DNA from: Candidatus Tayloriibacteriota bacterium
GTDB lineage: Bacteria > Patescibacteriota > Minisyncoccia > Phycocordibacterales > PALSA-1337
Length of the DNA: 64,000 bases
Assembly: GCA_031384385.1 (NCBI GenBank)
Contig: JANNAN010000007.1
Location: 10,236-74,235, forward strand
Reading direction: 5' to 3'
A program made the translations under genes and the position numbers. This document shows positions 16,201 through 46,200 of this stretch, in pieces (the stretch's first letter is position 1; every line of letters starts with the position of its first letter). The notes under the pieces are model-generated. The model saw nothing but the letters and a program-made list of their open reading frames with translations, was not told where the DNA came from and ran no database searches.

Positions 16201-16203
16201 TGT

Positions 16204-17228: not shown

Positions 17229-17240
17229 TAATTTAAAAAA

Positions 17241-18530: not shown

Positions 18531-18550
18531 GGTAGTATTGTAACAAAATT

Positions 18551-19464: not shown

Positions 19465-19643
19465 TTATTTTATAGTTAATTTAATAATAAATAAATTTTA
19501 TAACTTTTAAAAATTGGCACAATTATTTTTTCTAAGATTTATGTTGTAATGAGGTAGTAAGACATAAGAATAAATTTTTTCAATAGACACGAAACTTTTT
19601 TGTGATAATATTTAGCTAATATCAATACTAATTAATAAAAATT

Positions 19644-20474: not shown

Positions 20475-20504
20475 AAGATGTGTTTGTGATATAATTATGT
20501 TTAT

Positions 20505-21602
20505 ATGGAGAAATATAACCCAATTAATACTGGAGAAAATGTTCAAGAGCCCATATTGATAGATAAGAATGGACAAACCCAAGATAAAAATAAAGATTTA
20601 AATAGAAATATTATTTTGTATGAGAAAACTCAAAATCAGCTTTCATTAATTAATAGCAAATTATCTAAAGAAAATATTACAGATATTGATCGCATTACTC
20701 TATTACAAGAAAGGGAATATAAAATTAAGCAAAGAAATTATCTTGGCCCACATATTGGAATACCAGATAGAGATTCTTGGAAAGATAAAGACCCTTTTGT
20801 TTTTAGAGAGGATAATATATTCTCACTTAAAAAAATATTAGAATACTGGCATGAATATTCACCCGATTATATTTTTTTAACAGAAACAAGTGCTGTACCT
20901 TATGGATATGCAATTAAAGAAGCATGGAAGAATGCATATCCCAGTGAAAAAATACCGATATTTTATCGAATAGAATCTTGGACAGAACAAGATCATATTG
21001 TAGAAATTGACCATGAAAATGAAAGTATAGATGGTCTTATTAGATATGCCCAAAAAGACAATTTAGATTTACCAATTTTAAAACAAATGAAAATCGGTGT
21101 AAAAAAATATATTGATAATAGAATTATTATTCAAAATCCTAAAATAATTATTTTTGATCAATATGATAAAATGATGAGACCGACAAGAATTAGACCAGGT
21201 GAAAACACTGGTGGTAGAACAATATCAGGATTAAGTAAAGAGTTACAAAAAAGATTTCCAGGTGCAGATATATATAGTGCTGGGGTAAATCTTGATTCTG
21301 AATATAAAAATAGGAAAATGGACTTTGGACGTGGAGGTATCATTAAAAAAAATCACCCCCGTGTTACGTTAAAAAGAAATGCAGATCAGAGTAGGGATCC
21401 AGATATAAACGAAAATTTAGTAGACCCATTATCATTAAGGTCTAGAGAAGAAATAGTCAGTGATATATTAGAGAAAGGATATAGGCCAGTCGGGAGATTG
21501 ATTAAAGATCCAGAGAGAAGAAAGGAGGCTTTAAAATATATAGATGAATTAAAGGAGTTGGGTATGATTGCTGGAAAAGAATTTAGAGATGGAAATAAAT
21601 AA
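20505..21602 (+). CDS. Hypothetical protein (365 aa)
   Basis: A long ORF with no recognisable family. It immediately follows DinD-like paralog 2. Confidence 0.5.
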   Translation: MEKYNPINTGENVQEPILIDKNGQTQDKNKDLNRNIILYEKTQNQLSLINSKLSKENITDIDRITLLQEREYKIKQRNYLGPHIGIPDRDSWKDKDPFVFREDNIFSLKKILEYWHEYSPDYIFLTETSAVPYGYAIKEAWKNAYPSEKIPIFYRIESWTEQDHIVEIDHENESIDGLIRYAQKDNLDLPILKQMKIGVKKYIDNRIIIQNPKIIIFDQYDKMMRPTRIRPGENTGGRTISGLSKELQKRFPGADIYSAGVNLDSEYKNRKMDFGRGGIIKKNHPRVTLKRNADQSRDPDINENLVDPLSLRSREEIVSDILEKGYRPVGRLIKDPERRKEALKYIDELKELGMIAGKEFRDGNK

Positions 21603-30129: not shown

Positions 30130-32994
30130 TTATTGTATGGATTTTTTAGTAAGAGGTCCAAATATTCCTGTTGGTGATATGTTCATATTTATCTGATATT
30201 TCATAACAGCGTCGCGTGTAAAACTACCAAAGAATCCTTTGACTGTACCGACAGGGAGTATGAGATAACCTCTTGATTCAAGTAATGTTTGAAGTGATAT
30301 GACATCATCTCCTGTAAAACCGAATGAAAGATCTCTAGAATATGTACTTGTGCCTATTATAATTGGAGTAATGACAGGTGTGATAATGTTATTTGGTGTA
30401 ATATATTGAGATAATATTGTCTTACAAGTTGCAGTTCTAGTCATTGGTCCAAAATATCCCGTTGTCGGAACATTCACAATTCCTTGATGAGTCATAACCG
30501 AAGCTTTAGTGATTGCTCCAAAATATCCTTTGCTTACATTAACGGGCATTATTAAAAGTCCCTGAGATTCAAGATGGGTTTGAAGTGCGGATACTTCGAC
30601 GCCGCTATCGCCCATAGAAAGATTGCGTTCGAAATTACAACTTGCTGGTGTTATCACAACTGGCGTTGAAGCCGCAAAAGGTAAAATTATTTTCCTAATA
30701 CTACTTCCTCCTGACCTACTACTTGAAGATGAATTTGAAGATCCAACACCTGATGAGACAACTGTGGCAATAAGTCCGCGCCCTGTTCCTGATGAACCTC
30801 CACTTGAAAGATCGCCGGTAAATGGTGTTGAGCCATTAAGTATTACGATAGTTTGTCCTGAACTTGTCACACCAACATTAGCAAAACCACTATCGATACT
30901 TGTACTCAAATTGTCAAAACCAGATTTTGATACAGCGATTGATCCAGAACTTGTTGAAATAAAATAATATGCATTTGATACTGAAGTCGCAGCAGATGTT
31001 CCTCCATGAGTTACAGTCGCACCAGTCACAGCTGACCCGTTTGCATCACTGACCAATACTTTGAGAGTGTATTGTGTATCAGATAAAGTTTGAATTGATT
31101 GAGTATCTACATTGGCACTACGATTTGTGGTATCTCCAGAGGTACTTGTGACATATCCGCTTTTTGTGATGGTGATATCATTTGCAGTTCCATCTTCGCT
31201 GGTTGGTACTGGACAATATGCAATATTGGAAACAATGGTACATATAGTATTAGAAGAACCTGCAGTGACTGTTGCACCTGTTAGATTTTCTCCTGCTTCC
31301 GTTTGAAGTGTAATCTTCTGTGCAAATTGCAAACCTTGTCCACTCGCATTATTTCCTGCGGATACAGAAGATGTGAGAATAGATCCTGATCCGAAAGTGA
31401 TTGAAGTTGTGCTAGTTTGATTTGCGCTTACATTTGTAAGTCCTGTATTGTTTGTGGTTGCGGTGACATATCCGTTTTTTGCAAGAATAAGTGATCCTGA
31501 ACTGGTAGTTGTTGCCCAGTATGCGATATTTGATGTACTCGTAGAAACAGTAATACCGCCAAATGTTTTAGTCAGAAGATCAGAAATGTTAATTGCAGTT
31601 CCTAGTTCATCTGCAACAGTAACTTTTAAAGGATAACCGAAGCCGACAGTTGTCTGAATATTTCCACTTGCTTGTCCAATGCCAAATGTTTTTTGACTTG
31701 TAAGTGCTGAAATCAAATTTCCTGTGTCAGCAACAGTTCCTGCTGTCAGGTAGGCAGTATTTGCAGTCATACCATCAACAGTCACATTGTTTAAACTAAG
31801 TCTTATAGCATCATCGCCACCTCCATTTCCTGTAGTTGCGATATAGATCACATCACTTGCAACAGCTGAAGCAATGATAGATATACCACCAGATCCTGTA
31901 ATAGAAATATCAGTCGATGTAGCTCCAGGAATGCCGTTTGCGATATTTGTTATGTTTCCACCCAATTCTGATTTAAGGGCTGTAGATTTTAATGCGTATT
32001 CAAGACCTTTTAAGTTGAGCGTCTGTCCAATACTTATAGGGCTTGAGTTTATAGCATTTGCACCGAGAGTGATATTTGTTTGTCCTGTACTGTCTGCTGA
32101 TACATTTGCGAGTGCTGTGTTTGTAATGGCATTTGGAATAAATCCTGTTTTATTGATAACAATAACTTTTGACAATCCTGCACTAGGTGCAAAATAAAAG
32201 ACATTTGAAGAGGATGCAGTTTCAATTGATCCATCGAAAGTGATAGATGTTGGAGTTATACTATTTCCCAATTCATCTGCTACGCTAACTTTTACTTGAA
32301 ATAAAATATTTGTAGGAGAGATAGATCCTTGAACATCAGTAAGAGATGTTCGATTTCCGACACTTGATGAAGTATTTGTAACATAACCAGACTTTGCAAT
32401 ACTCAATGCTGCACCATCTGATGCAATAGGAACTGGACAATAAAAAATGCCTAGTGTTTGGGCTTCGATACAAACTGTTGCACCGACTCCGACCGTAGCA
32501 CCAGAAAGTGCACCCCCATCTCCTTCACGAGTGATTGTTGCTTTGTGTGCAAACTTTACCGAGTCAGAGCCAGTGAATGTGAAAGAGTTAACACTATTGA
32601 GAAGCGATTCGATGGCTCCAAGTTTTTCTTTTGTCACATAGCCGTCTTTACTCACTTGTATATCAAGGGAACTACCAACAATACATGTACCAGCATTTAA
32701 AAGGAGATTGGTAAGTGTTGTAAGATCAGTTATAGATACCACACCAGAAGAATTAGTGGTAACTCCAACATCAGTATATGATCCTGCATTACATTTTATT
32801 TTCACTATCGCTCCTTCAAGGGCAGTGGCTGAGACTGCCTCACGATTGACTGTGATAGTTAGCCCATCAGTGATGGCTGCATGAGCACTCTGTGGTGTAT
32901 ATAAAAAGTTGATAATAGAAATAAAAAATAGGACCATAAAAATAGACCCCATTCGAAACGATCCACGCGCATGTATAAAATTTTTCATTATCAT
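30130..32994 (-). CDS. Large secreted surface protein: signal peptide, at least 5 Thr/Ser/Gly-rich beta-sandwich repeats each ending in KSGYVT, and two C-terminal PG_binding_1-like peptidoglycan-binding domains
   Basis: 954 aa. Repeats: SKDGYVTKE, AKSGYVTNTSSS, AKNGYVTATTNN, TKSGYVTSTSGD. Two C-terminal ~60-aa units LS.G..G..V..LQ..LE..G.L......G.FG..T..AV...Q. An SSSSS linker is present. Confidence 0.7.
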   Translation of the reverse strand: MIMKNFIHARGSFRMGSIFMVLFFISIINFLYTPQSAHAAITDGLTITVNREAVSATALEGAIVKIKCNAGSYTDVGVTTNSSGVVSITDLTTLTNLLLNAGTCIVGSSLDIQVSKDGYVTKEKLGAIESLLNSVNSFTFTGSDSVKFAHKATITREGDGGALSGATVGVGATVCIEAQTLGIFYCPVPIASDGAALSIAKSGYVTNTSSSVGNRTSLTDVQGSISPTNILFQVKVSVADELGNSITPTSITFDGSIETASSSNVFYFAPSAGLSKVIVINKTGFIPNAITNTALANVSADSTGQTNITLGANAINSSPISIGQTLNLKGLEYALKSTALKSELGGNITNIANGIPGATSTDISITGSGGISIIASAVASDVIYIATTGNGGGDDAIRLSLNNVTVDGMTANTAYLTAGTVADTGNLISALTSQKTFGIGQASGNIQTTVGFGYPLKVTVADELGTAINISDLLTKTFGGITVSTSTSNIAYWATTTSSGSLILAKNGYVTATTNNTGLTNVSANQTSTTSITFGSGSILTSSVSAGNNASGQGLQFAQKITLQTEAGENLTGATVTAGSSNTICTIVSNIAYCPVPTSEDGTANDITITKSGYVTSTSGDTTNRSANVDTQSIQTLSDTQYTLKVLVSDANGSAVTGATVTHGGTSAATSVSNAYYFISTSSGSIAVSKSGFDNLSTSIDSGFANVGVTSSGQTIVILNGSTPFTGDLSSGGSSGTGRGLIATVVSSGVGSSNSSSSSRSGGSSIRKIILPFAASTPVVITPASCNFERNLSMGDSGVEVSALQTHLESQGLLIMPVNVSKGYFGAITKASVMTHQGIVNVPTTGYFGPMTRTATCKTILSQYITPNNIITPVITPIIIGTSTYSRDLSFGFTGDDVISLQTLLESRGYLILPVGTVKGFFGSFTRDAVMKYQINMNISPTGIFGPLTKKSIQ

Positions 32995-33130: not shown

Positions 33131-33613
33131 ATGAGTATTCATCCAAAAGTAAGTATTGGTCATGTACATTTAACAGTCGCTGATCTAGATCGATCACTTA
33201 GGTTCTACCGAGATCTTTTGGGGTTTGAAGTAACAACATGGTATGGAGATTCTGCAGTGTTCCTATCAGCAGGAGGATATCATCATCATATTGGATTGAA
33301 TACATGGGCAGGAAAAGATAGTACATCTGCTCCTAAGGGACATACAGGCTTGTATCATTTTGCAATTCTTTTTCCCACAAGAAAAGAATTAGCTAAGATT
33401 GTTAAGAAATTATTGGATAGTAATTATCAAATAGATGGATCAGCAGATCATGGCGTATCTGAAGCAATATATATTCGTGATTCTGATAATAATGGAGTTG
33501 AATTGTATGTCGACAGGCCGCGTGAGATGTGGAAGAAGGGTTCGGACGGCAAGTTCATAATGGAAACTTTGCCTCTCGATCTTAAAAAGTTACTTGAGGA
33601 AATTGATAATTAA
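33131..33613 (+). CDS. VOC-family (glyoxalase/bleomycin-resistance/dioxygenase fold) protein
   Basis: IGHVHLTVADLDRSLRFYRDLLGFEV, a typical VOC N-terminal module. Confidence 0.7.
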   Translation: MSIHPKVSIGHVHLTVADLDRSLRFYRDLLGFEVTTWYGDSAVFLSAGGYHHHIGLNTWAGKDSTSAPKGHTGLYHFAILFPTRKELAKIVKKLLDSNYQIDGSADHGVSEAIYIRDSDNNGVELYVDRPREMWKKGSDGKFIMETLPLDLKKLLEEIDN

Positions 33614-33938
33614 TTTTTAAGATAAATAATTAGGTGTGTATAAATTAAAAATCCTTACTAAGGTAAGCATATTAATTTCACTTCAAATATTCAGGAGGCA
33701 AAATAATCTTCATCTTTTCGAATCCTAATGCGACGCCAGCAGAGGCGTCGTTCCTTCTGTGAATTAAAAATAGGCACATACACCGCGTTTTTTAATTGCT
33801 CGACATGGTGCGGGATATCGGAACCTTTTGGAAGACAAACAAAGAGCATATTTGGCTACCGAATATCAGGCAGGGTTTCTTTGGGATAGTACGACCAACG
33901 GACAAGGAAATGGCGAAATATCGCTAAATTACCGAAAG

Positions 33939-34160
33939 TGCATAGTGCAGTATGCGAAAAATACCTTTTCTGCATAGTACAGCGTGATGAGTATGCAAAA
34001 AAGGCAAATTTTGACCACTAAATACACTGTACTGGTCAAAAAGTACGTTTTTTGACCAGTACAACGTGTGAAGTGTACAAAAAAGGTAATTCTGTCCAGT
34101 AAAACAGGTTTGTTGGACAAAATCGGTACTTTTTGTCCAGTTGAGCGATGGTCCCAAGCT
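33939..34160. repeat. Array of ~5.5 direct repeat units (~40 bp, alternating two unit types), each containing an imperfect palindrome (TGACCAGTA...TACTGGTCA / TGTCCAG...TGGACA / TGCATAG...TATGCA) followed by AAAAAG(G/T)AC...TTTT
   Basis: Read directly: units at ~33939, 33971, 34013, 34054, 34094, 34135. The array shares a GTCCAGTAAAA/AAAAAGTA core with the 42760-43140 array. Confidence 0.6.
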
Positions 34161-34666
34161 TATTTCGGCCTGTCTCCCTTCAACAATCTCTCAAAAGCCT
34201 CAAGGTTCCCCATAGCATCATGCACTGGATGATGATCGTGCTTTGTTATACTTAGCCTTTTCCAAGATGAGGCGTCTTTGAAGTCTCCGATTAAGCCAGC
34301 ATAAAAATCACCGATTCTTCTAGCAGAATATCCAAATGGATTTCTGCCTAGGGTTCGATGAAAACTATCATTGATCCACTGCCAGTCAAAAGCAGGATTG
34401 TCACTGACAAATTTAGGTCTCTCCTCGCCGCTTATTTCTTGTAGCCAGGCATCAAACTTTTTGAACACCTCCACTTCATCAAAGACCACGCCGGTCGCCA
34501 CTTTGATATTAGAATCTTCATTAGAAGGCTTTCGTTCTACCAAGACGCCATGAAAAGTAGCCTTCGATGGATATGCAACCGCACCAAATTCAGTAAGTTG
34601 TCCCATACTCGGACACTTACCGTTTGCCTCACAATCTACAAAGATTAAATTTTTTAGACTTTCCAT
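34160..34666 (-). CDS. DEDDh 3'-5' exonuclease domain protein (DnaQ epsilon-like)
   Basis: Exo I FVDCEANG, Exo II SDNPAFDWQWI and Exo III HHPVHDAMGNLEAF (H-x4-D). Confidence 0.65.
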   Translation of the reverse strand: MESLKNLIFVDCEANGKCPSMGQLTEFGAVAYPSKATFHGVLVERKPSNEDSNIKVATGVVFDEVEVFKKFDAWLQEISGEERPKFVSDNPAFDWQWINDSFHRTLGRNPFGYSARRIGDFYAGLIGDFKDASSWKRLSITKHDHHPVHDAMGNLEAFERLLKGDRPK

Positions 34667-34740
34667 ACCTATAGTTTAGCTTCAGATCCAAAATTTATGA
34701 AGCCCCCTCAAACTCTTGATGACCACTTATCCACATTTAA

Positions 34741-34823
34741 GTTTGAATACATTGATTGACTGGATGTATCCAAACATGTATACTTTGAATACATTATAAA
34801 AAAGATGTATACAAACATGAATT
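34741..34823. repeat. 42-bp direct repeat x2 (TTTGAATACATT-N8-GATGTATnCAAACATG) in the divergent promoter region, extending over the Fic start codon
   Basis: Unit 1 at 34741-34782 and unit 2 at 34783-34823. Both carry short TGTAT/ATACA inverted elements. Confidence 0.5.
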
Positions 34824-35959
34824 CTATCCAAATTGGCGAACTAAAAGAGCAGAAAGAAGGCTTCAAAGCTTTCATCCCAGGATCTTTTCCTCCGAAAGGC
34901 GGCTTTGAATTTGACCCTAAAATCGTAAAGAAAAGCGATGAGGCTACCCGTTTGCTCGGAAAGCTCGACGGCATCACTAAGCTTTTGCCAGATGCAGATT
35001 TTTTCTTGCTTATGTACTTGAGAAAAGATGCTGCATCATCAAGTCAGATCGAGGGTACAATGGCAACAATGGTTGATGCTATTGAAGCTGAAGTTCAGTC
35101 AAGCACAAAGATTCCGGAAGATGTAGATGATATTTTGCATTACATTAAAGCACTCAATTATGGAATGGAGCGGGTACAACAGGACAATTTTCCTATCTCG
35201 CTGAGGTTCATTCGAGAGCTACATAAGCAATTGATGGATAAGGCGCGCACTACACACTTCTCAGACCCAGGTGAGTTTAGGAAAACTCAAAACTGGATTG
35301 GTGGCACTCGTCCCGACAATGCTCGATTTGTTCCTCCACCGGTTGATGACATGAATAATGCACTGACTGATCTGGAAAAGTTCATGCACACTGACGATCC
35401 GACACTTACTTTGATCAAAGCGGCTCTTGTTCATGCCCAGTTTGAAACTATTCACCCGTTTCTAGATGGAAATGGCAGGACGGGCCGTATGCTTATAACC
35501 TTTTATTTATGGAAGGAAGGTTATCTCGAAAGACCGGTATTGTTTTTGTCATCCTTCTTTAAGAAGCACCAAAAAGTGTACTACGAGAGACTCTTCGGCT
35601 ATCACTTTGGTAATGCCGCGGAATGGGTTGATTTCTTTCTCGACGGCGTAATAGAGATCGCGAATGAAGCAATTGAAATTGTTTCGAAGATAACCGCACT
35701 CCGTGAAAAGGATGTCGTGAAGATACAGACGCTCGGTAAACGTGCTTCAGAAAGTGCGGTCCTTGTGCTGCCTAAATTGTATGGACAGCCAATTGTAAAT
35801 GTCTCCTTGATTCAAAAATGGACAGGGTTTAATCGTGCCGCATCTCAAACTGTAATCAAACGCTTTATAGACATGGGTATTCTTACTCCTAAGGATAAAG
35901 ATAAGAAGTATGGCAAATCATACATATACAAGAAATATGTAGATATTTTCTCTGAATAA
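34805..35959 (+). CDS. Fic/Doc-family protein (AMPylator-type Fido domain) with a C-terminal winged-helix
   Basis: Canonical Fic motif HPFLDGNGRTGRML. The start may instead be the ATG at 34817. Confidence 0.85.
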   Translation: MYTNMNSIQIGELKEQKEGFKAFIPGSFPPKGGFEFDPKIVKKSDEATRLLGKLDGITKLLPDADFFLLMYLRKDAASSSQIEGTMATMVDAIEAEVQSSTKIPEDVDDILHYIKALNYGMERVQQDNFPISLRFIRELHKQLMDKARTTHFSDPGEFRKTQNWIGGTRPDNARFVPPPVDDMNNALTDLEKFMHTDDPTLTLIKAALVHAQFETIHPFLDGNGRTGRMLITFYLWKEGYLERPVLFLSSFFKKHQKVYYERLFGYHFGNAAEWVDFFLDGVIEIANEAIEIVSKITALREKDVVKIQTLGKRASESAVLVLPKLYGQPIVNVSLIQKWTGFNRAASQTVIKRFIDMGILTPKDKDKKYGKSYIYKKYVDIFSE

Positions 35960-35964
35960 AATCT

Positions 35965-36153
35965 ATGAATCCCGTTGCAAACCAAAACCAAAAAGAAACC
36001 TATATCAAGTGCAGGAAATGCGGCACTGAGGTTTTTACCATTACAAATGGTGGTTTAATTCCATGTAAATGCGGTGCTATTTCCGTTGATGGCTCTACAG
36101 ACCTCGTGAGGGTACTTGGTAATCCCGAGGACTACGAGGAAATACAAAAATAA
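35965..36153 (+). CDS. Small zinc-ribbon protein (62 aa)
   Basis: CRKCG...CKCG. Lies between Fic and the RM gene. Confidence 0.35.
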   Translation: MNPVANQNQKETYIKCRKCGTEVFTITNGGLIPCKCGAISVDGSTDLVRVLGNPEDYEEIQK

Positions 36154-36157
36154 TTAT

Positions 36158-38833
36158 ATGAATCCTGTCGAACTTCAAGAAAATTTAGAGGATCTAACTG
36201 AAAACCTTTCGCGAGAAACGTTTATTTTTGAATTGTTGACAGCATACAGGTTGCCAAAAAGCACAGTCAGTCTTCTTAAGAAGAGTCCTTCTAAGTTATC
36301 TGGAAATAACAATCAAATTATTTTAAAAAATAAGGTCCTATTTCAAGCAACTACAATTGAGGAAGATGAGCATATTGTTATAGATAATCTCCAAAAAGAC
36401 AAAAATACATTTAGATACAACCCGAGATTTTTGATTGTTACTGATTTTCAAACATTACTTGCAGTAGATACCAAAACAAAAGAGACCCTAGATATCAAAA
36501 TAAATGACTTAGGGAGATACTATACCTTTTTCTTACCATGGGCAGGAATGGAGAAGGCACAACACGTAAACGAAAATCCTGCGGATATTCGTGCCGCAAG
36601 CAAGATGGCTAAGCTGTATGATCAAATAATAAAGGATAATCCCAATCACACTGAAAACGGACTCTATGATTTAAATGTTTTCCTATCACGGCTACTTTTT
36701 TGTTTTTTTGCTGAAGATACGGGGATATTCAAAAAGGGATTATTTACAAATTCGATTGATTCCAACACTCAAATATCAGGAGACGGCATTGGTGATTATT
36801 TCGACTCACTTTTTGATGTTTTAAATACAAAAGATACAGAGAGGTCGTCTTTTGCACATCATTTTACAGAATTTCCATATGTAAACGGCGGGCTGTTTGA
36901 AAAAAAGATCAAACTACCTATTTTTACTGCTAACTCACGTAGATTGATAATTGAGTGTGGGAAACTAGGTTGGGATGCTATCAATCCTGATATCTTCGGA
37001 TCAATGATCCAAGCGGTGGTTCATCCTGGTCAAAGAGAGAATCTGGGAATGCACTACACTTCTGTTCCGAATATAATGAAAGTCATTGAACCTCTTTTTC
37101 TAAATGATTTATATGATGAACTAGAAAATTCAAAAGATGATATTAAAAAACTAACAAAGCTACGAGAGCGTATATCAAAGATTAAAATATTTGATCCTGC
37201 TTGTGGCTCCGGTAATTTCCTGATTATTTCATATAAGGAATTATCAAAATTAGAATCAAAAATAATTGGTTGTGCTAAGGACATAGGACATCAAATGATG
37301 CCCTATTCAGGTGTGTCTCTAAACTCTTTTTATGGAATAGAGATAGATGATTTTGCACACGAGATTGCAAGGCTTTCATTGTGGCTTGCTCAGCACCAGA
37401 TGAATACCTATTTTGATGATCTGTTTGGAATGATGAAACCTACACTACCCCTCAAAGAGAGCGGAATAATTGTATGTAAAAATGCTGCAAGGATTGACTG
37501 GAATGTAGTGTGTCCTCGCATTGATTATAAAAATGAGAAATTTGAAATTTATATGGTCGGTAACCCACCATATCTAGGGTTCTTGCAACAGAAAGCTGAA
37601 CAAAAAAAAGACATGGATTTAGTTTTACCATTGGTTAATGGATATAGAAAACTAGATTACATCTCTTGCTGGTTCTATAAAGCAGCAGAATACATCTCAG
37701 AATCATTTGATATAAAAATTGCCTTTGTATCAACTAATTCGACTTCGCAAGGAGAACAGGCCTCTATTTTCTGGCCTGAAATATTCAAAATGAATGTCGA
37801 AATATTCTTCGCATACCAATCATTTAAATGGCAGAATAATGCCAAAAATAATGCTGGCGTTACCTGTGTGATTATTGGCTTGAGGAAAGTATCAAGTAAA
37901 CCAAAGTATTTATATGTTGATAATTTAAAAACTAGCGCAACAAATATAAACGCTTACTTAGCAAATTCAAGTAATGTCGTTGTTACCAAGAGAACAAAAC
38001 CGCTTTCAAATCTACCAACCATGGATCTTGGTAGTGCGGCGTATGATGGAGGTTACTTGATGCTTACTCAGGAAGAACGCAACGCCTTTATCAGTAATTC
38101 ACCTAAATCAGAGGATTTCATTAAACCTTTCATGGGATCAGCGGAGTTTATACGAAACATAAAAAGATATTGTATTTGGATTGAAGATAAAGATTCAGTT
38201 GAGGCAACTAAAATTCCAGATATTAAAAATAGATTAGAAATAGTAAAACTTTTTAGAGAAAAAAGCGGAAGAGGAAAAACACTTGAGACTGCTGAGACCC
38301 CCTATAAATTTACAGAAATAAGATATAAAAAAGCTCCAGCAATTATTGCACCGATCATTTCTTCTGAGACAAGAGAATATATACCTTTTGGTTTTATAAA
38401 GGAGGGTATCGTTGTGCCAAATTCAGCAAGAATTATATATAATTCTGAACCTCATATTTTTGCAATCATAACTTCTAGAATGCATATGGTATGGGTCCGC
38501 GCTGTTGCGGGCAGATTAAAAACTGATATTAGATACTCAGGAACGATTTGCTATAACACCTTTCCGTTTCCCTCAATTACTCTTCAACAAAAAGAAGAAC
38601 TTACTGGCCATGTTTACAATATCTTAGGTGAGCGAGAAAAATATCCCAATAGAACAATGGCAGAACTCTATGATCCAGATAAGATGCCAGATGGATTAAA
38701 AGTTGCGCATAAATATCTCGATACAGCAATTGACCAAATATATAGAAGTAAACCATTTGAAAATGACGAGAGCCGACTGTCGCATCTATTTAAACTCTAC
38801 GAAGAAATGATTATTAATGAAACAAACCAATAA
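36158..38833 (+). CDS. MmeI-like Type IIL/IIG restriction-modification fusion enzyme: N-terminal putative PD-DxK nuclease, gamma-class N6-adenine methyltransferase and a C-terminal target-recognition region
   Basis: MTase motif I KIFDPACGSGNFLI and motif IV VGNPPYLG. The YVNGGLF helical-domain motif is present. N-terminal D...VDTK is a possible PD-(D/E)xK. About 890 aa. ATG 36158 is preferred over the TTG-extended ORF at 36116. Confidence 0.7.
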   Translation: MNPVELQENLEDLTENLSRETFIFELLTAYRLPKSTVSLLKKSPSKLSGNNNQIILKNKVLFQATTIEEDEHIVIDNLQKDKNTFRYNPRFLIVTDFQTLLAVDTKTKETLDIKINDLGRYYTFFLPWAGMEKAQHVNENPADIRAASKMAKLYDQIIKDNPNHTENGLYDLNVFLSRLLFCFFAEDTGIFKKGLFTNSIDSNTQISGDGIGDYFDSLFDVLNTKDTERSSFAHHFTEFPYVNGGLFEKKIKLPIFTANSRRLIIECGKLGWDAINPDIFGSMIQAVVHPGQRENLGMHYTSVPNIMKVIEPLFLNDLYDELENSKDDIKKLTKLRERISKIKIFDPACGSGNFLIISYKELSKLESKIIGCAKDIGHQMMPYSGVSLNSFYGIEIDDFAHEIARLSLWLAQHQMNTYFDDLFGMMKPTLPLKESGIIVCKNAARIDWNVVCPRIDYKNEKFEIYMVGNPPYLGFLQQKAEQKKDMDLVLPLVNGYRKLDYISCWFYKAAEYISESFDIKIAFVSTNSTSQGEQASIFWPEIFKMNVEIFFAYQSFKWQNNAKNNAGVTCVIIGLRKVSSKPKYLYVDNLKTSATNINAYLANSSNVVVTKRTKPLSNLPTMDLGSAAYDGGYLMLTQEERNAFISNSPKSEDFIKPFMGSAEFIRNIKRYCIWIEDKDSVEATKIPDIKNRLEIVKLFREKSGRGKTLETAETPYKFTEIRYKKAPAIIAPIISSETREYIPFGFIKEGIVVPNSARIIYNSEPHIFAIITSRMHMVWVRAVAGRLKTDIRYSGTICYNTFPFPSITLQQKEELTGHVYNILGEREKYPNRTMAELYDPDKMPDGLKVAHKYLDTAIDQIYRSKPFENDESRLSHLFKLYEEMIINETNQ

Positions 38834-40784
38834 ATTCATGAAAACAATTCAAGTAGCGGAAGCTACATACAAACAAACCGGAGAAAGTACAAAAATAAAT
38901 GAACTTGGAATGCGCGAAATGCAGGCTAAAGCATTTGAAAAACGTACTGCTCAATACCTACTTTTAAAAGCACCTCCAGCTTCAGGAAAGTCTCGTGCGC
39001 TGATGTTCCTTGCACTCGATAAGTTACAGAATCAAAATATCAAAAAAGTTATTGTTGCTGTTCCAGAAAAAACAATTGGTGGATCTTTCAGTGATACAAA
39101 TCTCAAAACTGAAGGTTTCTTTGCTGACTGGAAATTAAATGACGATTATAACTTGTGTACGCCAGGTACCGATGGTAGCAGTAGCAAGGTCCAAGCCTTT
39201 AAAAACTTTATGGACAATAACGAGAAGGTTCTTGTTTGCACCCACGCAACTTTGAGATTTGCCTGCGAACAGATCGAGGATTCAAAATTTAATGATACTT
39301 TGATTGCTATTGATGAATTTCACCATGTCTCTGCGGACAAAGAGAGTAGTACGCTTGGGCGCGTTTTACATGGAATAATGACTAATTCAAGTGCTCACGT
39401 GATTGCAATGACAGGATCTTATTTTAGAGGTGATGGTGTGGCGGTCCTATTACCTCAGGATGAAGAAAAATTTACAAAAGTTACGTATAACTATTACCAG
39501 CAACTCAACGGATATAATTTTTTGAAGTCGCTTGGTATCGGGTACCATTTTTATCAAGGTAAATATACATCAGCAATCAGTGAGGTTCTTGATACAAACA
39601 AAAAAACGATACTACATATTCCAAATGTTAATTCAGGTGAATCAACAAAAGATAAACTAAACGAGGTCGATCTTATTTTAGATATTATTGGCGAAGTAGA
39701 TCATCAAGATCATGATACTGGGGTTATTTACGTAAAAAGAGACGGAGACAGCAAGATATTAAAAGTCGCTAACCTTGTGGATGATTCTGTAGACCGTGAA
39801 AAAATATCAGGATATCTAAGGACAATGAAGAAGGAAGACGACATGGACATTATTATTGCACTTGGTATGGCAAAGGAAGGTTTTGATTGGCCATACTGTG
39901 AGCACGCTCTTACTGTCGGCTACCGAAGCTCTTTAACAGAGATCATTCAAATAATCGGTCGCTGCACTCGTGATAGTTCAAATAAGACACATGCTCAATT
40001 TACAAATCTTATTGCTCAGCCAGACGCACAAGATAGTCAGGTAAAGATATCAGTCAACAATATGCTTAAGGCAATTACATGCTCGCTACTCATGGAGCAA
40101 GTAATGGCCCCTCATTACAATTTTAAACCAAAGTTTCCGAATGACGGTACCGACTTTATCCCTGGTGAAATAAAAATAAATGGATTTAAAGAGCCGAGTT
40201 CAGACAGAGTAAGAGAAATTATTGAATCAGATATCAATGATCTCAAGGCTTCAATTTTACAGGACGACCAGATCGTAAGAGCCCTTCCTGGTAATGTTGA
40301 TCCAGAAGTTATAAACAAAGTAATGATCCCAAAGATTATTCGGATCAAGTACCCTGATCTGAGTGATCTTGAGGTTGAAGAAGTGAGACAGCATGTAGTT
40401 GTTGATTCTGTAATCAAGAATGGCGAAATAAAAGAAATCGGAGATAAACGTTTTGTTAGAATGGCAGGACAATTTGTAAATATTGATGAACTTAACATAG
40501 ACCTTATCGATAGGATAAACCCATTCCAGGAAGCCTTTGAGATACTTTCAAAATCAGTCACATCAAATATACTAAAAGTCATTCAGGATACAATCGACTC
40601 ATCAAGAATTGAAATGACTCCTGAGGAGGTTAGAATCCTATGGCCTAAGGCGAAAGAGTTTAAAGAAAGAACTGGTCGAGTCCCAGAACTTAACTCTGCG
40701 GACCCTCTGGAAAAGCGTTTAGCAGAGGCGTTGGTATACTTGAGAAAGATAAAAGTTGAACAAGCAAACAATAAGCATGAGTAA
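38817..40784 (+). CDS. SF2 DExH-box helicase (restriction Res-subunit-like ATPase) lacking its own nuclease domain
   Basis: Walker A APPASGKSRA, DExH box AIDEFHHV and motif VI QIIGRCTRD. The start overlaps the upstream gene by 17 nt (alternative ATG at 38838). Confidence 0.8.
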   Translation: MKQTNKFMKTIQVAEATYKQTGESTKINELGMREMQAKAFEKRTAQYLLLKAPPASGKSRALMFLALDKLQNQNIKKVIVAVPEKTIGGSFSDTNLKTEGFFADWKLNDDYNLCTPGTDGSSSKVQAFKNFMDNNEKVLVCTHATLRFACEQIEDSKFNDTLIAIDEFHHVSADKESSTLGRVLHGIMTNSSAHVIAMTGSYFRGDGVAVLLPQDEEKFTKVTYNYYQQLNGYNFLKSLGIGYHFYQGKYTSAISEVLDTNKKTILHIPNVNSGESTKDKLNEVDLILDIIGEVDHQDHDTGVIYVKRDGDSKILKVANLVDDSVDREKISGYLRTMKKEDDMDIIIALGMAKEGFDWPYCEHALTVGYRSSLTEIIQIIGRCTRDSSNKTHAQFTNLIAQPDAQDSQVKISVNNMLKAITCSLLMEQVMAPHYNFKPKFPNDGTDFIPGEIKINGFKEPSSDRVREIIESDINDLKASILQDDQIVRALPGNVDPEVINKVMIPKIIRIKYPDLSDLEVEEVRQHVVVDSVIKNGEIKEIGDKRFVRMAGQFVNIDELNIDLIDRINPFQEAFEILSKSVTSNILKVIQDTIDSSRIEMTPEEVRILWPKAKEFKERTGRVPELNSADPLEKRLAEALVYLRKIKVEQANNKHE

Positions 40785-41925
40785 CGATAATTTATTAGAT
40801 TTGATAAATGACGATGATTCCGGACTTCTTGATATTAAAGAGAAGGCTATTTCTATCACCCCAGACGATCGATTATTAGAATCATTTATGGAGATTAATG
40901 ACTTTTTTAAAACTCATAACTCAGAGCCAAAATCTGGTGGTGATATTCACGAGCACAAGCTTTCTTCAAGGTTGAAACATATCAGGGAAAATAAAGATCT
41001 CAAAGAATTTTTATCGAAGTATGATACATATAAACTATTAGCCGTAAGTACTAAGAATTTAGAGACCGTTAGTGATATCTTTGAAGATGATAGTCTTGGC
41101 CTGCTATCAGTTGAAGATACGTCAATTTTTAACATAACAAATGTTCCTGAAGTAGACAAAGATCGTTCGGATCCCGATTTTATTGCCAAGAGAGAAAGAG
41201 TTGTTGATTTTGAAAAATATAAGCATTTGTTTGATCAGTGTCAGAGAGAACTAAAAAACGGAACTAAAAAAATATCAAGTTTTGTTGAGGGTGAAATGAA
41301 AAAAGGTGACTTCTTTGTTTTAAGTGGAGTACTTGTGTATCTTGAGGACATCTTCAACCCTTACAGAGGTAATAGTCAGAAAATAAACCGAAGAACAAGA
41401 TGTATTTATGAAAACGGCACAGAATCAAATGTCTTACTGAGATCTCTTGGAAAGAGACTGTCTGAAGTCGGATATGCTGTTAAGGACAACGACCCGATGC
41501 CTGAAATTGATACCGACGATAAAGAAACTGGATATATTTATGTTTTAAAATCACTCAGTATGGATCCTAGAATTAATAGTACAAGAAATCTTTTTAAGAT
41601 TGGTTTTTCTACCATAACCGTTGAAGAAAGAATTAAAAATGCTGATCAGGATCCTACTTATCTTATGGCACCTGTTTCTATTGTGGCAACCTATAGGTGC
41701 TTTAACATGAACCCTCAAAGACTTGAAAGATTACTTCACCGATTCTTTACTGACTCATGTCTTGATATCGAAATAACTGATAAAAGCGGAAATAAATATA
41801 CTCCCAAGGAATGGTTCGTAGCGCCGATTGTTGTTGTCGAGAAAGTTATAGACCTAATCATAAAGGGAGATATCGTTAATTATGTATATGACAAAAGTAC
41901 TGAAAAAGTCATTTTAAATCAATAA
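40777..41925 (+). CDS. T5orf172/MUG113-type (GIY-YIG superfamily) domain protein
   Basis: GYIYVLKS...(17 aa)...KIGFSTITVEERI matches the T5orf172 pattern GyvYvl...KIGxT...R. The ATG overlaps the helicase stop (ATGAGTAA). The six-frame ORF is extended to 40756 by TTG. Confidence 0.55.
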   Translation: MSNDNLLDLINDDDSGLLDIKEKAISITPDDRLLESFMEINDFFKTHNSEPKSGGDIHEHKLSSRLKHIRENKDLKEFLSKYDTYKLLAVSTKNLETVSDIFEDDSLGLLSVEDTSIFNITNVPEVDKDRSDPDFIAKRERVVDFEKYKHLFDQCQRELKNGTKKISSFVEGEMKKGDFFVLSGVLVYLEDIFNPYRGNSQKINRRTRCIYENGTESNVLLRSLGKRLSEVGYAVKDNDPMPEIDTDDKETGYIYVLKSLSMDPRINSTRNLFKIGFSTITVEERIKNADQDPTYLMAPVSIVATYRCFNMNPQRLERLLHRFFTDSCLDIEITDKSGNKYTPKEWFVAPIVVVEKVIDLIIKGDIVNYVYDKSTEKVILNQ

Positions 41926-41928
41926 AGA

Positions 41929-42654
41929 TTGTTCATGAAAAATATAGAAGAAGGACTCAAAGAGATCTACGAAAATATAAGAAAATTAGAATCCTTAATA
42001 AATACTAAAAATGATCTTACTAGGATACATAAGGACAATGTATTTAATAGGAGATTTTCTGTTGTTCTCAGTGATTTTTCTGATCTTGAAACTATAGGAA
42101 TGAGACTTAATAAAAACATACCTGAAGTTGAGACTTTACAGAGGATTATACAAAAACGCTTCAAGTCCGAAGATAAGGACAGAATTACAGATGAAGGTCA
42201 AAGACTGCACCAAGAATCGGATAAGATTAATCGAGAAAATCAGGTAGATTTCAAATGTTTATATATTTTTTCAAAGATATTTCTTGATCAATATACTACT
42301 CTAATCAAATTATTATTTAATTGGCGAGGTATTGGCGACAAGTCAATTACAAGTTTTTATAATAGCCTAGAAAAATATAAAGGAGAGGAAGAACAGATCA
42401 TTTCTTTTAAAGATAGTTGCTTAAAAAGACTTAAAGCAATTGATGTTTTTGTAACAGAATACCGTGATCAATATGTTGTGCATGATCAAACTAAACATAA
42501 AGATACAAGATGGTTTTTAAATGATATGACGGGCAGTGTTAGATTTATTGGTGGTAGGCCATCAATAACACCACAGGAGTTGGTTTTTGTTGTTTCTAAT
42601 TATATTAAGGACTCCGTCACCTTTATAAAAGATCAAGAAAGCACCCTGAATTAG
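41929..42654 (+). CDS. Hypothetical protein (241 aa), last gene of the four-gene cluster
   Basis: Starts 4 nt after the T5orf172 gene on the same strand. No recognisable motifs. Confidence 0.5.
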   Translation: MFMKNIEEGLKEIYENIRKLESLINTKNDLTRIHKDNVFNRRFSVVLSDFSDLETIGMRLNKNIPEVETLQRIIQKRFKSEDKDRITDEGQRLHQESDKINRENQVDFKCLYIFSKIFLDQYTTLIKLLFNWRGIGDKSITSFYNSLEKYKGEEEQIISFKDSCLKRLKAIDVFVTEYRDQYVVHDQTKHKDTRWFLNDMTGSVRFIGGRPSITPQELVFVVSNYIKDSVTFIKDQESTLN

Positions 42655-42759
42655 GGCCTAAATTGCCCTGTGTACGCTTTTCCAAGCCTATTCAGGGCTT
42701 TTTACGTGTCTTGGCCAATACCCACTAATTTGCACTAATTCCGACCCCATACTTACTGG

Positions 42760-43140
42760 GTCCTGGGAAATTGATTGCACACACTTTTCAACATTTTTAG
42801 CGCCTCATACTATGTGGGTCCAGTAAAAAAGTAGAAATTGACTCCGCACGATTTTCCACGTTTTTACCAGGACATACTTATAGGATCCAAAGAGATAAAA
42901 GTAATTCCTACAGTTAGGAACTTTATACACCTTAGGATAAACCCATAATCTTAGGCCTAAAAAGTAATGCACCATATTTTGCATTTTTTAGAGCCTAGGA
43001 TTAAGTAGTTCTCTGGTCCGAAGTAATTCCTGCAATTAGTGAATTACAAGACCTCAGAATAGACAAATCGGATGACCCAAAAGTAATGCACGTAATTTTG
43101 CATTAAATAAGGTCTACGATACATACATTCCCATTGCACG
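42760..43140. repeat. About six degenerate tandem repeats of ~65 bp (GGRTCC..AAAAGTAR..ATT..GCAC..TTTT..AGGNCT), iteron-like
   Basis: Units begin near 42760, 42819, 42886, 42953, 43016 and 43073. Examples: TAATGCACCATATTTTGCATTTTTTAGAGCCTAGGA vs TAATGCACGTAATTTTGCATTAAATAAGGTCTACGA. Confidence 0.6.
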
Positions 43141-43185
43141 GAAAGAGCTGAGTCAACTTGCAATGGGGACTCAGCTCTTTCTGTT
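43126..43185 (+). promoter_or_regulatory. Two interleaved inverted repeats (CCCATTGCA...TGCAATGGG and AGAGCTGAGTC...GACTCAGCTCT), a pseudoknot-like or alternative-hairpin element followed by CTGTTTTC
   Basis: The arms are ordered a-b-a'-b' with 9-bp and 11-bp stems, immediately upstream of or overlapping the 43163 ORF start. Confidence 0.45.
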
Positions 43186-43510
43186 TTCAAAAAGAGCCAG
43201 CTCGATAAAGGTCGAAAGAAAAACCCTCATGCTTACCAAACACGCACTAGAAGAATACAAAGAAATACATCGCCAGGAAACCGGCGCGGTTTTTCCTGAT
43301 GACGTGTTGGCTAATGAGGCAATTAACTTGCTTACTCTTTTTAACTTTGTCTATCGACCGATCAAAAAAGAGTGGCTGAAAGAATATGGACGACAAAATA
43401 AATCTAAACGAGGAATGGCAGAGAATTCTCAGTCAGAAGAACAAATCGCCGAAACGAGTGGCGAAGTTCGAAGAATTCAAAAAGACCCATCTCGAACAAA
43501 CCAGGAGTGA
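43163..43510 (+). CDS. Small hypothetical protein (115 aa). Overlaps the next ORF in another frame, so possibly not real.
   Basis: ORF only. The start lies inside the hairpin element. Confidence 0.25.
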   Translation: MGTQLFLFSKRASSIKVERKTLMLTKHALEEYKEIHRQETGAVFPDDVLANEAINLLTLFNFVYRPIKKEWLKEYGRQNKSKRGMAENSQSEEQIAETSGEVRRIQKDPSRTNQE

Positions 43511-44375
43511 AATAAATCCGGACACACTTCGCAGTAAGAAAAAGCCTAACAGGTTTGTTGTCGATAACGAGTATGTCAAAGGTTATTATCTGGCGAAATT
43601 TCCACCGGTCTGTTCCCAGGTGCTTTTGACGTTACTTGTCCACTGCAATCTCAATAGACAGGATGCGTTTCCGAGCATTGTCACTATTCAAGAACTCTCC
43701 GGATGTACCAACACTCGAAGTGTCATTAGTGCTCTTAGGATTCTTGAGGCCTACGGGATAATTAACATTCGTCGGTCCAAGAGAGGGGTAAAAGCAGTGA
43801 ATGTCTATTTCTTTCAGTCGGTCCGACATTGGAGACCACTCTCAAAGAGCATGAAAAAGATTAAGCTCACCGATCCATTACCGCAATGGCAAAATCCCGT
43901 CCAGAGCACTGGCAGAAAACAGACCTATCGTACTGGCCCTACTGCCAGTCTAACTAACCTAAGAGAAAACTATAATAATAAAATACAAAATATTGGAGAT
44001 ATTTTAAGGGAAAGATTCAAAATGCCAGAAGACCCGTCTAAGGTTGCTATTCCTACACCTTCTAGCAATACTGTCGTCGATGACAAAAAGGCAGAAGACA
44101 TGGAACCTGATACGCCTGTTAGAACAGGTGAAAAACAAGGGTATCGTACTGGCACTAATGCCACTACGATTGATACCCGTAATAACGGGAAATTAACGGG
44201 AACCGAAAGTCAGAGACATGGCATGTCATCAGCCGTTTATAAACGGGAAATAACGGTCGAAAAACCTCCCGAGGATCCATTTGTAAATGGTGAAAAATGG
44301 ACTAAGGAAGATGAGGGTATCGGTCTGATGAATATCAACAATGAAGATATCGGACCAGGAAGCGCAACATTATAA
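43386..44375 (+). CDS. Winged-helix DNA-binding protein, plasmid/phage replication-initiator-like (Rep-type HTH)
   Basis: LLTLLVHCNLNRQDAFPSIVTIQELSGCTNTRSVISALRILEAYGIINIRR is a typical replication-protein winged-helix. C-terminal repeated ...TGxKQxYRTG... motifs. Located downstream of the iteron-like array. Confidence 0.5.
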   Translation: MDDKINLNEEWQRILSQKNKSPKRVAKFEEFKKTHLEQTRSEINPDTLRSKKKPNRFVVDNEYVKGYYLAKFPPVCSQVLLTLLVHCNLNRQDAFPSIVTIQELSGCTNTRSVISALRILEAYGIINIRRSKRGVKAVNVYFFQSVRHWRPLSKSMKKIKLTDPLPQWQNPVQSTGRKQTYRTGPTASLTNLRENYNNKIQNIGDILRERFKMPEDPSKVAIPTPSSNTVVDDKKAEDMEPDTPVRTGEKQGYRTGTNATTIDTRNNGKLTGTESQRHGMSSAVYKREITVEKPPEDPFVNGEKWTKEDEGIGLMNINNEDIGPGSATL

Positions 44376-44380
44376 AAACT

Positions 44381-46042: not shown

Positions 46043-46075
46043 CAGCGGATTGCTCTACCTCTGAGCTACACCGGA
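46004..46075 (-). tRNA. tRNA-Asn (anticodon GTT)
   Basis: Manual fold on the minus strand: 7-bp acceptor stem (one G-U pair), D arm GCTC-AGAGGTA-GAGC, anticodon loop CTGTTAA, 5-nt variable loop, T arm GCAGG-TTCGATC-CCTGC, discriminator G. No encoded CCA. Confidence 0.8.
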
Positions 46076-46200
46076 ATGTGTATTAATTTCGTTCCTTTTG
46101 TTAAGAACATAAGTATACTATCAGATATATATATAAAAGTGAAGATAAAATAGATTATTATAAATAATAATAAAAGATTATTTGAGCTAGATTTTAAACA

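Follow-up and report, generated by a model that had tools for sequence, protein, structure and literature searches.

Why does a mobile element of a Patescibacteria genome carry a row of alternating palindromes directly behind one of its genes, and how could such a row act? The array in question occupies 33939-34160 of the window, by which we mean the whole 64,000-nucleotide stretch of Candidatus Tayloriibacteriota DNA analysed here. The window consists of AT-rich host DNA (~26% G+C) with a 12.2-kb island of ~35-45% G+C, and the array lies inside this island: it begins 11 bp past the stop codon of a displaced piece of the island's recombinase gene and ends at the stop codon of a convergent exonuclease gene. 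A sequence-only reading had taken the array for binding sites of an element-encoded protein, namely a replication initiator (Rep), a partition protein or a recombinase. We agree that the array is non-coding, conserved and cis-acting, but consider Rep, partition and recombinase sites unlikely. Instead, we tentatively favour a selected non-coding module that works by intrastrand pairing and has a structure-dependent boundary or 3'-end role like that of REP (repetitive extragenic palindromic) sequences and BIMEs (bacterial interspersed mosaic elements). Patescibacteria, or Candidate Phyla Radiation (CPR) bacteria, represent a large share of bacterial diversity, and their mobile elements and non-coding DNA are almost uncharted.

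Architecture and distribution of the array

The array is ~220 bp long and comprises six palindromic units that start at 33939, 33971, 34012, 34053, 34093 and 34134, the sixth being degenerate (5.5 units with a period of 41 bp). The unit starts given in the sequence-only reading agree with these within 1-2 bp; the three palindromes quoted there are correct, and the array does lie close to one island end. A full unit reads TTTTG-NNN-A-N-TA, 9 nt, TA-N-T-NNN-CAAAA (12-9-12). Its 9-mer arms begin 18 and 23 nt apart, which makes up the 41-bp period, and alternate in orientation. The half-site TTTTGNCCAGTA is found six times within 133 bp when up to two mismatches are allowed, and 34 times in the remaining 63.8 kb. 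Two alternating unit types had been described. The alternation is real, but the 9-nt spacers of adjacent units (types a and b) are approximate reverse complements, so that the two types are a single unit in both orientations. Since unit orientation alternates, the linkers alternate too, between A5-(G)TAC(G/C)-T5 and A6-GG(T/C)AA-T; the A5-GTAC-T5-like spacer reported before thus describes every second linker.

Three 82-bp super-units, each a long imperfect palindrome, are assembled from these units. Repeat finding returned a direct super-period of 82 bp (D1, 51 nt, 75% identity) and an inverted repeat (I1) with its centre on GTACG at 34043-34048, whose 34-nt arms are 79% complementary. In one reading direction, the variable triplets of the arms, here called flavours, are CAT four times, then ACC three times plus TAC, then TCC three times. 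The array features, to none of which a strand is assigned, are given below with their bit scores from two covariance models of the two hairpin registers (R1 and R2), which were run on 805 kb of related loci and the window.

33926-33938: left border linker AAATTACCGAAAG, which includes the final two bases of the recombinase-tail stop codon
33939-33956: unit 1, a short 18-nt palindrome (TGCATA-GTGCAG-TATGCG), CAT flavour
33948-33979: central palindrome of super-unit 1, consisting of the right arm of unit 1, linker AAAAATACCTTTTC and the left arm of unit 2; R1 39.0 bits, E = 6e-8
33968-34000: unit 2, TTCTGCATAGTA-CAGCGTGAT-GAGTATGCAAAA (12-9-12), CAT flavour, type a spacer; R2 39.9 bits
34009-34041: unit 3, TTTTGACCACTA-AATACACTG-TACTGGTCAAAA, ACC flavour, type b spacer; R2 43.4 bits
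34030-34061: central palindrome of super-unit 2, TACTGGTCAAAAAGTACGTTTTTTGACCAGTA, the strongest hairpin; R1 45.9 bits
34050-34082: unit 4, TTTTGACCAGTA-CAACGTGTG-AAGTGTACAAAA; R2 38.8 bits
34090-34122: unit 5, TTCTGTCCAGTA-AAACAGGTT-TGTTGGACAAAA, TCC flavour, type b spacer; R2 40.3 bits
34111-34142: central palindrome of super-unit 3, TGTTGGACAAAATCGGTACTTTTTGTCCAGTT; R1 36.1 bits
34131-34159: unit 6, TTTTTGTCCAGTTGAGCGATGGTCCCAAGC, degenerate here and abutting the exonuclease stop codon

The central palindrome of super-unit 2 makes the long hairpin of the minimum-energy folds, and 34009-34082 as a whole is a 74-bp imperfect palindrome. The arms of unit 4 (left ACC, right TAC) are intermediate towards the next flavour.

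Searching one genome per species with the exonuclease protein yielded 68 loci, and nearly all of the close ones belong, by assignment, to Patescibacteria (Saccharibacteria, Paceibacterota, Nomurabacteria and others). Homologous arrays adjoin the exonuclease stop codon in all seven array-bearing element types, the window included, at a distance of 0-25 bp or, in L011, of ~50 bp with a terminator hairpin in between. They comprise six units in the window as well as in L011, L012 and L020, five in L046 (whose exonuclease is merely 67% identical), four in L022 and in L031, 3.5 in L032 and at least two in L028. Elsewhere, 1-1.5 units occur in L026, where they are upstream of the exonuclease gene, and near the element end of L027 and L030, where they lie past the operator of a Fic gene; a remnant of unit 1 survives in L024. 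About 12 further close relatives (including L010, L013, L017 and L018) lack an array, their convergent stop codons being 3-50 bp apart, and only about one third of the exonuclease-bearing relatives possess one. The array edge near the exonuclease is constant, and its distal edge is ragged with a different adjoining gene in each element; extra cargo of 1.3 kb in L011 and of 7.5 kb in L022 separates it from the recombinase tail. The array therefore travels with the exonuclease gene rather than with rep or the attachment site.

Single parts of the array can be followed through these elements. The left border linker is kept as A(A/T)TACC(A/G)AAAG beside unit 1 in L011, L022 and L024, with different DNA upstream of it in each. 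The spacer of unit 2 is near-identical in the orthologues of L011, L022 and L032, unit 5 has orthologues in L011, L022 and L028, and the arm-linker-arm core of super-unit 3, TTGGACAAAATCGGTACTTTTTGTCCA, is identical in these last three. The orthologue of the degenerate unit 6 in L028 and L031 is a clean 9-8-9 hairpin, TTTTGTCC-(A/G)GTACAG(C/T)-GGACAAAA. A separate observation concerns L032, where the loop of super-unit 3 is exactly inverted (5198-5229, GTACCGA for TCGGTAC at 34111-34142 of the window) with the arms retained, which fits an exchange between arms.

Neither R1 nor R2 found a unit outside these arrays in the 805 kb of loci and the window. Exact 21-mer scans gave no match in IMG/VR, none in GTDB genomes and one in JGI metagenomes, in an L011-type element. 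BLAST of 33600-34700 against plasmid and phage records returned nothing for the array, the sole phage match being to the coding part of the exonuclease gene, and our literature searches found no description of this array or island family. Two further approaches were discarded: a degenerate pattern of the architecture gave four matches in IMG/VR, all chance ones in AT-rich DNA, and a generic palindrome finder (TTG...CAA) was too noisy for use.

Selection on the array and probable pairing between its arms

Could the array simply be a gene? Two minus-strand open reading frames (ORFs) in the window (33924-34157, 77 aa; 33929-34120, 63 aa) and an 82-aa ORF in L020 would speak for a small protein. 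However, the two ORFs in the window have no Pfam match, the arrays of the window and L011 differ by 2+2-nt indels, arrays also differ by whole 82-bp super-units, and the 41-bp period is not divisible by three. In L022, L031, L032 and L046 there are stop codons in most frames and no single frame is open across the arrays. A coding function is therefore hardly conceivable, and the ORFs are best regarded as artefacts of the repeats, as the sequence-only reading had supposed. Comparison with the homologous elements shows a non-coding array with a conserved repeat structure.

This conservation is considerable. Orthologous super-units are 70-94% identical, whereas the four-fold degenerate sites of the adjoining exonuclease gene are only 33-54% identical in the same pairs and thus near saturation. 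When the window was aligned with L011, L022 and L028, identity was 83-93% within the array, 60-67% in the 30 bp separating array and gene, 50-97% across the exonuclease coding sequence and 47-60% in the intergenic DNA upstream of it. The dip between array and gene argues against one recent recombination tract. Judged by these alignments, the array is under purifying selection, because it is more identical than neighbouring four-fold sites and other intergenic DNA; it is a non-coding element more strongly conserved than the adjoining coding DNA.

Such conservation bears on the idea that the array consists of selfish palindromes of the REPIN, BIME or MITE (miniature inverted-repeat transposable element) type, which settled in a harmless gap between convergent genes without benefit to the element. 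The architecture would fit, with alternating imperfect palindromes, long hairpins of ~80 bp and tandem clusters. So would the copy number of two to six units, the ragged left edge of the arrays and the position in a 3'-3' gap that otherwise measures 3-50 bp. However, no further copy exists in the 805 kb, no exact copy was found in GTDB or IMG/VR, and the one in JGI belongs to an L011-type element. Moreover, the same super-units occupy the same site in the same order despite saturated synonymous sites, which indicates descent with purifying selection rather than repeated insertion. We regard the selfish alternative as very unlikely.

What, then, is selected? Compared with dinucleotide shuffles, the 240-nt region folds unusually well as RNA (z = -7.2 for the minus strand and -6.0 for the plus strand) and as DNA (z = -5.8), with none of 200 shuffles as good in any of these folds. 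For covariation, units were aligned without gaps in two registers, 12-9-12 (20 units) and 13-6-13 (17 units). In the former, 86% of cells are paired and covariation is 0.267 compared with 0.114 after shuffling, and in the latter the values are 91%, 0.339 and 0.165; none of 500 shuffles reached the observed covariation in either register, and slid partners pair in only 34-50% and 40-56% of cells, respectively. As the units are paralogous, they are non-independent samples for these figures, and the orthologous super-units contain too little variation for RNAalifold to address covariation at the level of orthologues. Pairing is best in the linker-centred register, which contains a C:G / G:C / U:G position where the other one has a mismatch; each super-unit thus has as its core a 32-bp palindrome with the (G)TAC linker in the middle.

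The three variable arm positions show three to four pair types each; G5:C, A9:T, T11:A and the T and A runs are invariant. Changes occur in parallel: CAT becomes CAC in three arms of L031, where both arms of unit 1 are altered together (TGCACA...TGTGCA), both arms of unit 4 turn to C at one shared position in L011, and in L027 and L030 a G:C pair replaces the C:G pair of the super-unit 2 palindrome (TAGTGG...CCACTA), the change affecting both arms. Adjacent arms share triplets more often than expected from permutations (P = 0.0006, 0.0005, 0.013 and 0.006; 0.10 in the short L022 array). Across arrays, the flavours follow the order CAT, TGC (in L046 only), ACC and, closest to the exonuclease, TCC, with the same flavours in the same order in L011, L022, L028, L031, L032 and L046. 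Triplets that are symmetric within a super-unit, conserved between elements and different between super-units point to base pairing between arms, because a single protein reading the duplex would not need them. This combination of an invariant foot with triplets that match within and differ between repeats separates a sequence that folds on itself from one that is read as duplex. We consider it probable that the array acts through intrastrand pairing, be it as hairpins in RNA or single-stranded DNA or as cruciforms in supercoiled duplex. With a private triplet for each super-unit (CAT, ACC, TCC), its four arms would pair mutually and not with neighbouring super-units, by which mispairing would be avoided, and the invariant TTTTG, A9, T11 and A12 (TTTTG/CAAAA and A.TA) could form a common foot readable by a structure-specific protein.

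The same data have to be weighed against a row of duplex sites whose single binding partner (for instance a repressor, a Rep-type initiator, a centromere-binding protein or a resolvase-like accessory factor) would coat one face of intrinsically bent DNA. TTTTG...A.TA is invariant in all half-sites, which are spaced ~20.5 bp apart along the same face of the helix, the A- and T-tracts being in phase; the whole sequence including the spacers is strongly conserved, and the island does encode a Rep-like protein. The central palindromes resemble serine-invertase or resolvase sites (outer TGGTC, A-tract, central TA), and lambda-type origins contain palindromic iterons with phased A-tracts. However, one protein would call for one sequence, yet three to four flavours are each conserved and symmetric, and iterons or centromeres should repeat one sequence. 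The array is also optional, while Rep and recombinase genes are found in the loci retrieved via the Rep protein; its distance from rep is 9 kb, and the conserved repeats beside that gene (palindromes preceded by AAAGTAAT) are different. The island proteins include neither a partition protein, which also speaks against the partition site proposed earlier, nor a small resolvase. Finally, the array follows the exonuclease gene rather than the attachment site (1.3 kb distant in L011, 7.5 kb in L022), contrary to the suggestion of recombinase accessory sites. Duplex sites of this kind are unlikely in our view, though less so than the other alternatives.

If the array pairs within a strand, it could also serve as a signal for a single-stranded stage of the element, i.e. 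as a site of complementary-strand priming, transfer or uptake comparable to plasmid ssi/sso hairpins and oriT inverted repeats. The fold as DNA, the conservation of hairpin feet and loops and the position near one element end in the window, L031, L027 and L030 would agree with this, and the island, which excises as a circle, has genes for a replication initiator and a proofreading-type exonuclease. On the other hand, the Rep-like protein belongs with theta-replication (phage O-like) initiators rather than with nicking HUH proteins, and the island proteins comprise no relaxase or transfer genes. Such signals are strand-specific, yet the array shows no strand asymmetry and one loop is flipped in L032. 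Most relatives also lack the array. We consider this alternative quite unlikely.

The array could alternatively be an independent structured RNA that partners the exonuclease as substrate, decoy, antidote or regulator. Seven element types show strict adjacency of the array to the stop codon of the exonuclease gene, its conservation equals that of coding sequence, its layout of several hairpins resembles protein-sponge or antitoxin RNAs, and in L011 it is followed by an intrinsic terminator as in a small-RNA gene. However, the exonuclease is equally conserved in about 12 relatives and in phage contigs where the array is missing, alternating units are unlike known antitoxin RNA arrays, and there is no strand bias. 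A promoter scan of the array returned nothing, and with Rfam 15 only tRNA-Asn exceeded the gathering score in the window, the array giving only sub-threshold, microRNA-like hairpin matches. An RNA partner of this kind is therefore improbable. Similarly improbable, but of interest, is an undescribed functional pair of the Cap18-like exonuclease and a dedicated, flavour-coded multi-hairpin nucleic acid (a substrate, brake, decoy or guide-like scaffold), which would sit at the fixed end of swappable CPR defence islands. If true, this would amount to a new module of nuclease and structured nucleic acid in defence islands.

We return to intrastrand pairing with a boundary function. The module is optional and attached to the 3' end of the Cap18-like exonuclease gene, filling the gap to whatever gene converges on it. 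This position in a 3'-3' gap suggests a boundary or 3'-end function as in REP/BIME clusters: the array might act as a barrier to read-through and to 3'-5' decay of the convergent transcripts, or as a docking or supercoil-absorbing site. By itself, such a role is possible rather than probable. If it is correct, BIME-like boundary elements can be single-locus, element-borne and strongly selected.

Several observations weigh against this interpretation. G.U-type pairs show no strand bias (7 vs 11 and 12 vs 6), so that nothing marks one strand as a functional RNA, and RNA, single-stranded DNA and cruciform are indistinguishable on this basis. Template-switch correction of quasi-palindromes could homogenise the arms without selection for pairing. 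Loops and linkers are conserved as strongly as stems, which goes beyond the needs of a mere decay barrier and implies a specific partner. No terminator-like site was found within the array or anywhere in 33500-35000, T-runs of the array preceding stems or lying within them. In L011, a bidirectional terminator stands between the exonuclease gene and the array, which places the array there outside the exonuclease transcript. In addition, the 1 or 1.5 units in L026, L027 and L030 are upstream of genes, and the ~12 relatives without an array manage with stop codons 3-50 bp apart. Folding in vivo, the identity of the folding molecule and the biological role are what we infer from the patterns described here.

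The island that carries the array

The array belongs to an integrative anti-phage defence island of Patescibacteria at 33798-46006, which a serine recombinase put at the 3' end of a tRNA-Asn gene. The features that define its ends are:

33796-33927, plus strand: displaced C-terminal piece of the recombinase gene (43 codons, 33796-33924, and stop codon, 33925-33927), with the attL crossover core GCTC at 33798-33801
34160-34666, minus strand: gene of a 168-aa DEDDh 3'-5' exonuclease (Cap18/Rv2179c-like; weak match to Pfam PF16473)
44381-46042, plus strand: large serine recombinase gene, with the attR core GCTC at 46003-46006

From left to right, the island encodes the 168-aa DEDDh exonuclease, a SoFic-type Fic protein, an MmeI-like type IIG restriction-modification (RM) enzyme, a helicase, a T5orf172 protein and a 241-aa protein, followed by ~600 bp of non-coding DNA, a 115-aa ORF, an HTH_36 protein and the 553-aa large serine recombinase. 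The HTH_36 protein is the Rep-like protein and matches phage replication-initiation families. The family scans covered the island proteins and a few proteins of the flanks.

The island boundary was located by homology break-points. In the integrated state, the recombinase ORF runs on into the tRNA-Asn gene (46001-46076, minus strand). In eight related recombinases, the protein sequence is common up to ...NPTNCEVSSLGL and the DNA up to ...CACTAGGGCTC, beyond which the flanks differ. At the left end of the window island, as in L010, L011, L013 and L018, the displaced tail is still conserved as coding sequence. GCTC is present at both junctions, joining them gives one continuous frame (...EVSSLGL-DMVRDIGTFWKTNKEHIWLPNIRQGFFGIVRPTDKEMAKYR*), and uninterrupted recombinase ORFs bearing this tail occur in our protein collection (P0034, P0047 and P0050). 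It follows that the attachment site lies inside the recombinase gene and that the island spans 33798-46006. A tRNA direct repeat was looked for at the left end and not found, as expected for a serine recombinase. As a side result, integration into the 3' end of tRNA-Asn swaps the last 41 residues of the recombinase for 13 residues read from the antisense of the tRNA, and the integrated and excised island could therefore carry different recombinase proteins. With a recombinase gene cut by its own attachment site, the island is a compact and well-delimited model of defence-gene exchange in CPR bacteria.

The best solved relative of the exonuclease is PDB 7T2S (E = 7e-11), which is E. coli Cap18, a 3'-5' exonuclease associated with CBASS (cyclic oligonucleotide-based antiphage signalling system; PMC12345164). 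PADLOC labels the protein as 'Effector, Exonuclease' (E = 8e-16), and it is 81-90% identical among related elements. Homologues with 51-64% identity occur in phage contigs (L001-L009, IMG/VR), where neighbouring genes overlap or abut, and the island gene may be of phage origin; no array was found downstream of these phage homologues.

The Rep-like protein has about 30 relatives, none of them in IMG/VR. Their contigs have the same fixed ends and differing cargo, including DpnII and type I RM systems, AbiE, AAA_15/RloB and copper-handling genes. The window island forms a defence-island family with L010, L011, L013, L014, L017, L018 and L022, in which the ends are fixed and the cargo is swappable: the left end consists of recombinase tail and exonuclease, the right end of the non-coding region, the 115-aa ORF, the Rep-like protein and the recombinase. 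Four of the loci are at tRNA-Asn and the others at different sites, some of which resemble tRNA fragments. In L018, a second island (12575-20849) with its own serine recombinase, a HaeII-type RM system and AAA_15/GIY-YIG genes stands beside the first, which suggests tandem accretion.

The sequence-only reading had seen cores of the left array recur in a second array at 42760-43140 and had assigned both to one family of sites. The 11-mer GTCCAGTAAAA does recur once, at 42818-42828, but this copy is kept in the right-hand region of no relative. The region itself (42655-43230) aligns in all seven family members aligned, with 71% mean column identity, as opposed to the left array with its presence in about one third of the relatives, and a looser composite motif of arm, A-run and GTA is not enriched across both arrays (11 found, 8.8 expected), so that a shared site family is not upheld. 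Its conserved repeats are its own: AAAGTAATTCCTACAGTTAGGAA, AAAAGTAATGCAC...TTTTGCA, a doubled AAATTGATT-CACGATTTTCCACG motif and, ahead of the 115-aa ORF, a hairpin. The same repeats occur in L022. Palindromes of the TTCCTA...TAGGAA and ATGCA...TGCAT types, each preceded by AAAGTAAT, are spaced ~60 bp apart. Situated upstream of the 115-aa ORF and the Rep-like gene, 42655-43230 is probably the origin or operator region of the island, and for the Rep-like protein it is a better candidate than the left array. Directly before the 115-aa ORF (43120-43190), interlocked inverted repeats, CCCATTGCA...TGCAATGGG and AGAGCTGAGTC...GACTCAGCTCT, are followed by TTTT; their pairing is retained in L013 despite changed bases, and the arrangement looks like an attenuator or terminator-type switch.

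Further observations concern the surroundings. A bidirectional terminator hairpin, CTAGTGAATAG...CTATTCACTAC, with A- and T-run flanks is common to L011 (1565-1610), L013 (1525-1570) and L024 (12212-12260) and recurs at module boundaries of different elements, as though moving with cargo cassettes. A perfect operator-like palindrome, TTTTCACGATT-N10-AATCGTGAAAA, with a half-site is found in L027 (14740-14830), L030 (14760-14850) and L024 (12130-12180) upstream of a 290-aa Fic-family gene and adjoining single hairpin-repeat units. Just outside the island, a gene at 30130-32994 encodes a 954-aa protein with C-terminal peptidoglycan-binding repeats; its G+C content of 38-41%, compared with ~26% in the host flanks, means that it may be a separate acquisition. 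Tandem repeats elsewhere in the window lie inside called ORFs, namely at 60905-61045 (57 bp x 2.5, 90% matches; ORF 60895-61389) and at 10318-10407 (45 bp x 2, 80% matches; ORF 10295-11515).

Comparison with known repeat systems

How does the array compare with described elements? Iterons and replication origins do not match, given that the flavours CAT, ACC, TCC (and TGC in L046) are each conserved and that some replicons of the family lack the array. Lambdoid iterons and plasmid centromeres share palindromic repeats and phased A-tracts with it, and the island encodes an O-like initiator, but those systems reiterate one sequence and are essential, whereas the array has three to four flavours and is dispensable, the repeats adjacent to rep being another set. 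For a centromere of the parS/parC type, a Pfam match to ParA, ParB or a ParR-type protein would be required among the island proteins, and there is none. Accessory sites of the res type fail as well: the array is 140 bp from the crossover core here and at the larger distances given above in L011 and L022, the att half-sites are unlike the arms, and the large serine recombinase is the only one present.

Other classes were set aside on similar grounds. An intrinsic terminator would need a G+C-rich stem with a T-run, of which there is none in 33500-35000. The RNA of a type III toxin-antitoxin system (ToxI-like) does not fit units that alternate and differ, a location downstream of the gene, and a gene that occurs without the array in about 12 relatives. 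A CRISPR (clustered regularly interspaced short palindromic repeats) array is incompatible with spacers and linkers of only 9-14 nt that are conserved, and with the alternating orientation. Likenesses by eye to DnaA boxes, dif/Xer sites, Tn7 or Mu ends, hix/res sites and uptake sequences were dismissed because required positions vary, the partner genes are lacking, or host DNA shows no enrichment of the motif. The array is a kind of palindromic intergenic repeat; iterons, centromeres, res sites, terminators, ToxI-like RNAs, CRISPR and Rfam families each fail a tested defining feature.

Among systems that act through structure, integron attC sites are read as folded hairpins whose stem varies while pairing and a few boxes are kept, and they mark cassette 3' ends or module boundaries. 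However, there is one attC per cassette and IntI is needed, whereas the array packs six units without genes between them and the island has no such integrase. The par locus of pSC101 is a cis-acting, protein-free, gyrase-binding stability locus on a small replicon. Like the array, it is built from direct and inverted repeats that can fold into a large hairpin, but there is no sequence similarity, and par lies beside the origin, whereas the array is optional and 9 kb from rep. BOX elements of pneumococci (boxA-boxB(n)-boxC) are likewise modular and intergenic, with a variable number of ~45-bp internal units and a stable predicted fold; they differ in being direct repeats dispersed over the genome, while the units of the array are mutually inverted and confined to one locus.

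REP sequences of Enterobacteria and Pseudomonas, with their BIME and REPIN arrangements, are imperfect palindromes of ~35-40 bp that alternate, pair into hairpins of ~80 bp and stand in tandem after the 3' ends of genes, and the array shows the same extragenic 3' clustering of alternating palindromes. The roles of REP and BIME sequences depend on structure and include protection of mRNA 3' ends and binding of gyrase or integration host factor (IHF). REPs, however, are scattered in tens to hundreds of copies and rely on RAYTs (REP-associated tyrosine transposases). The array was detected at a single locus on a mobile element, with no copy elsewhere in the 805 kb of related loci and the window, and its super-units bear distinct conserved arm flavours. 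Going by these analogies, BIME/REPIN clusters are the closest architectural analogues of the array, and BOX elements resemble it more loosely.

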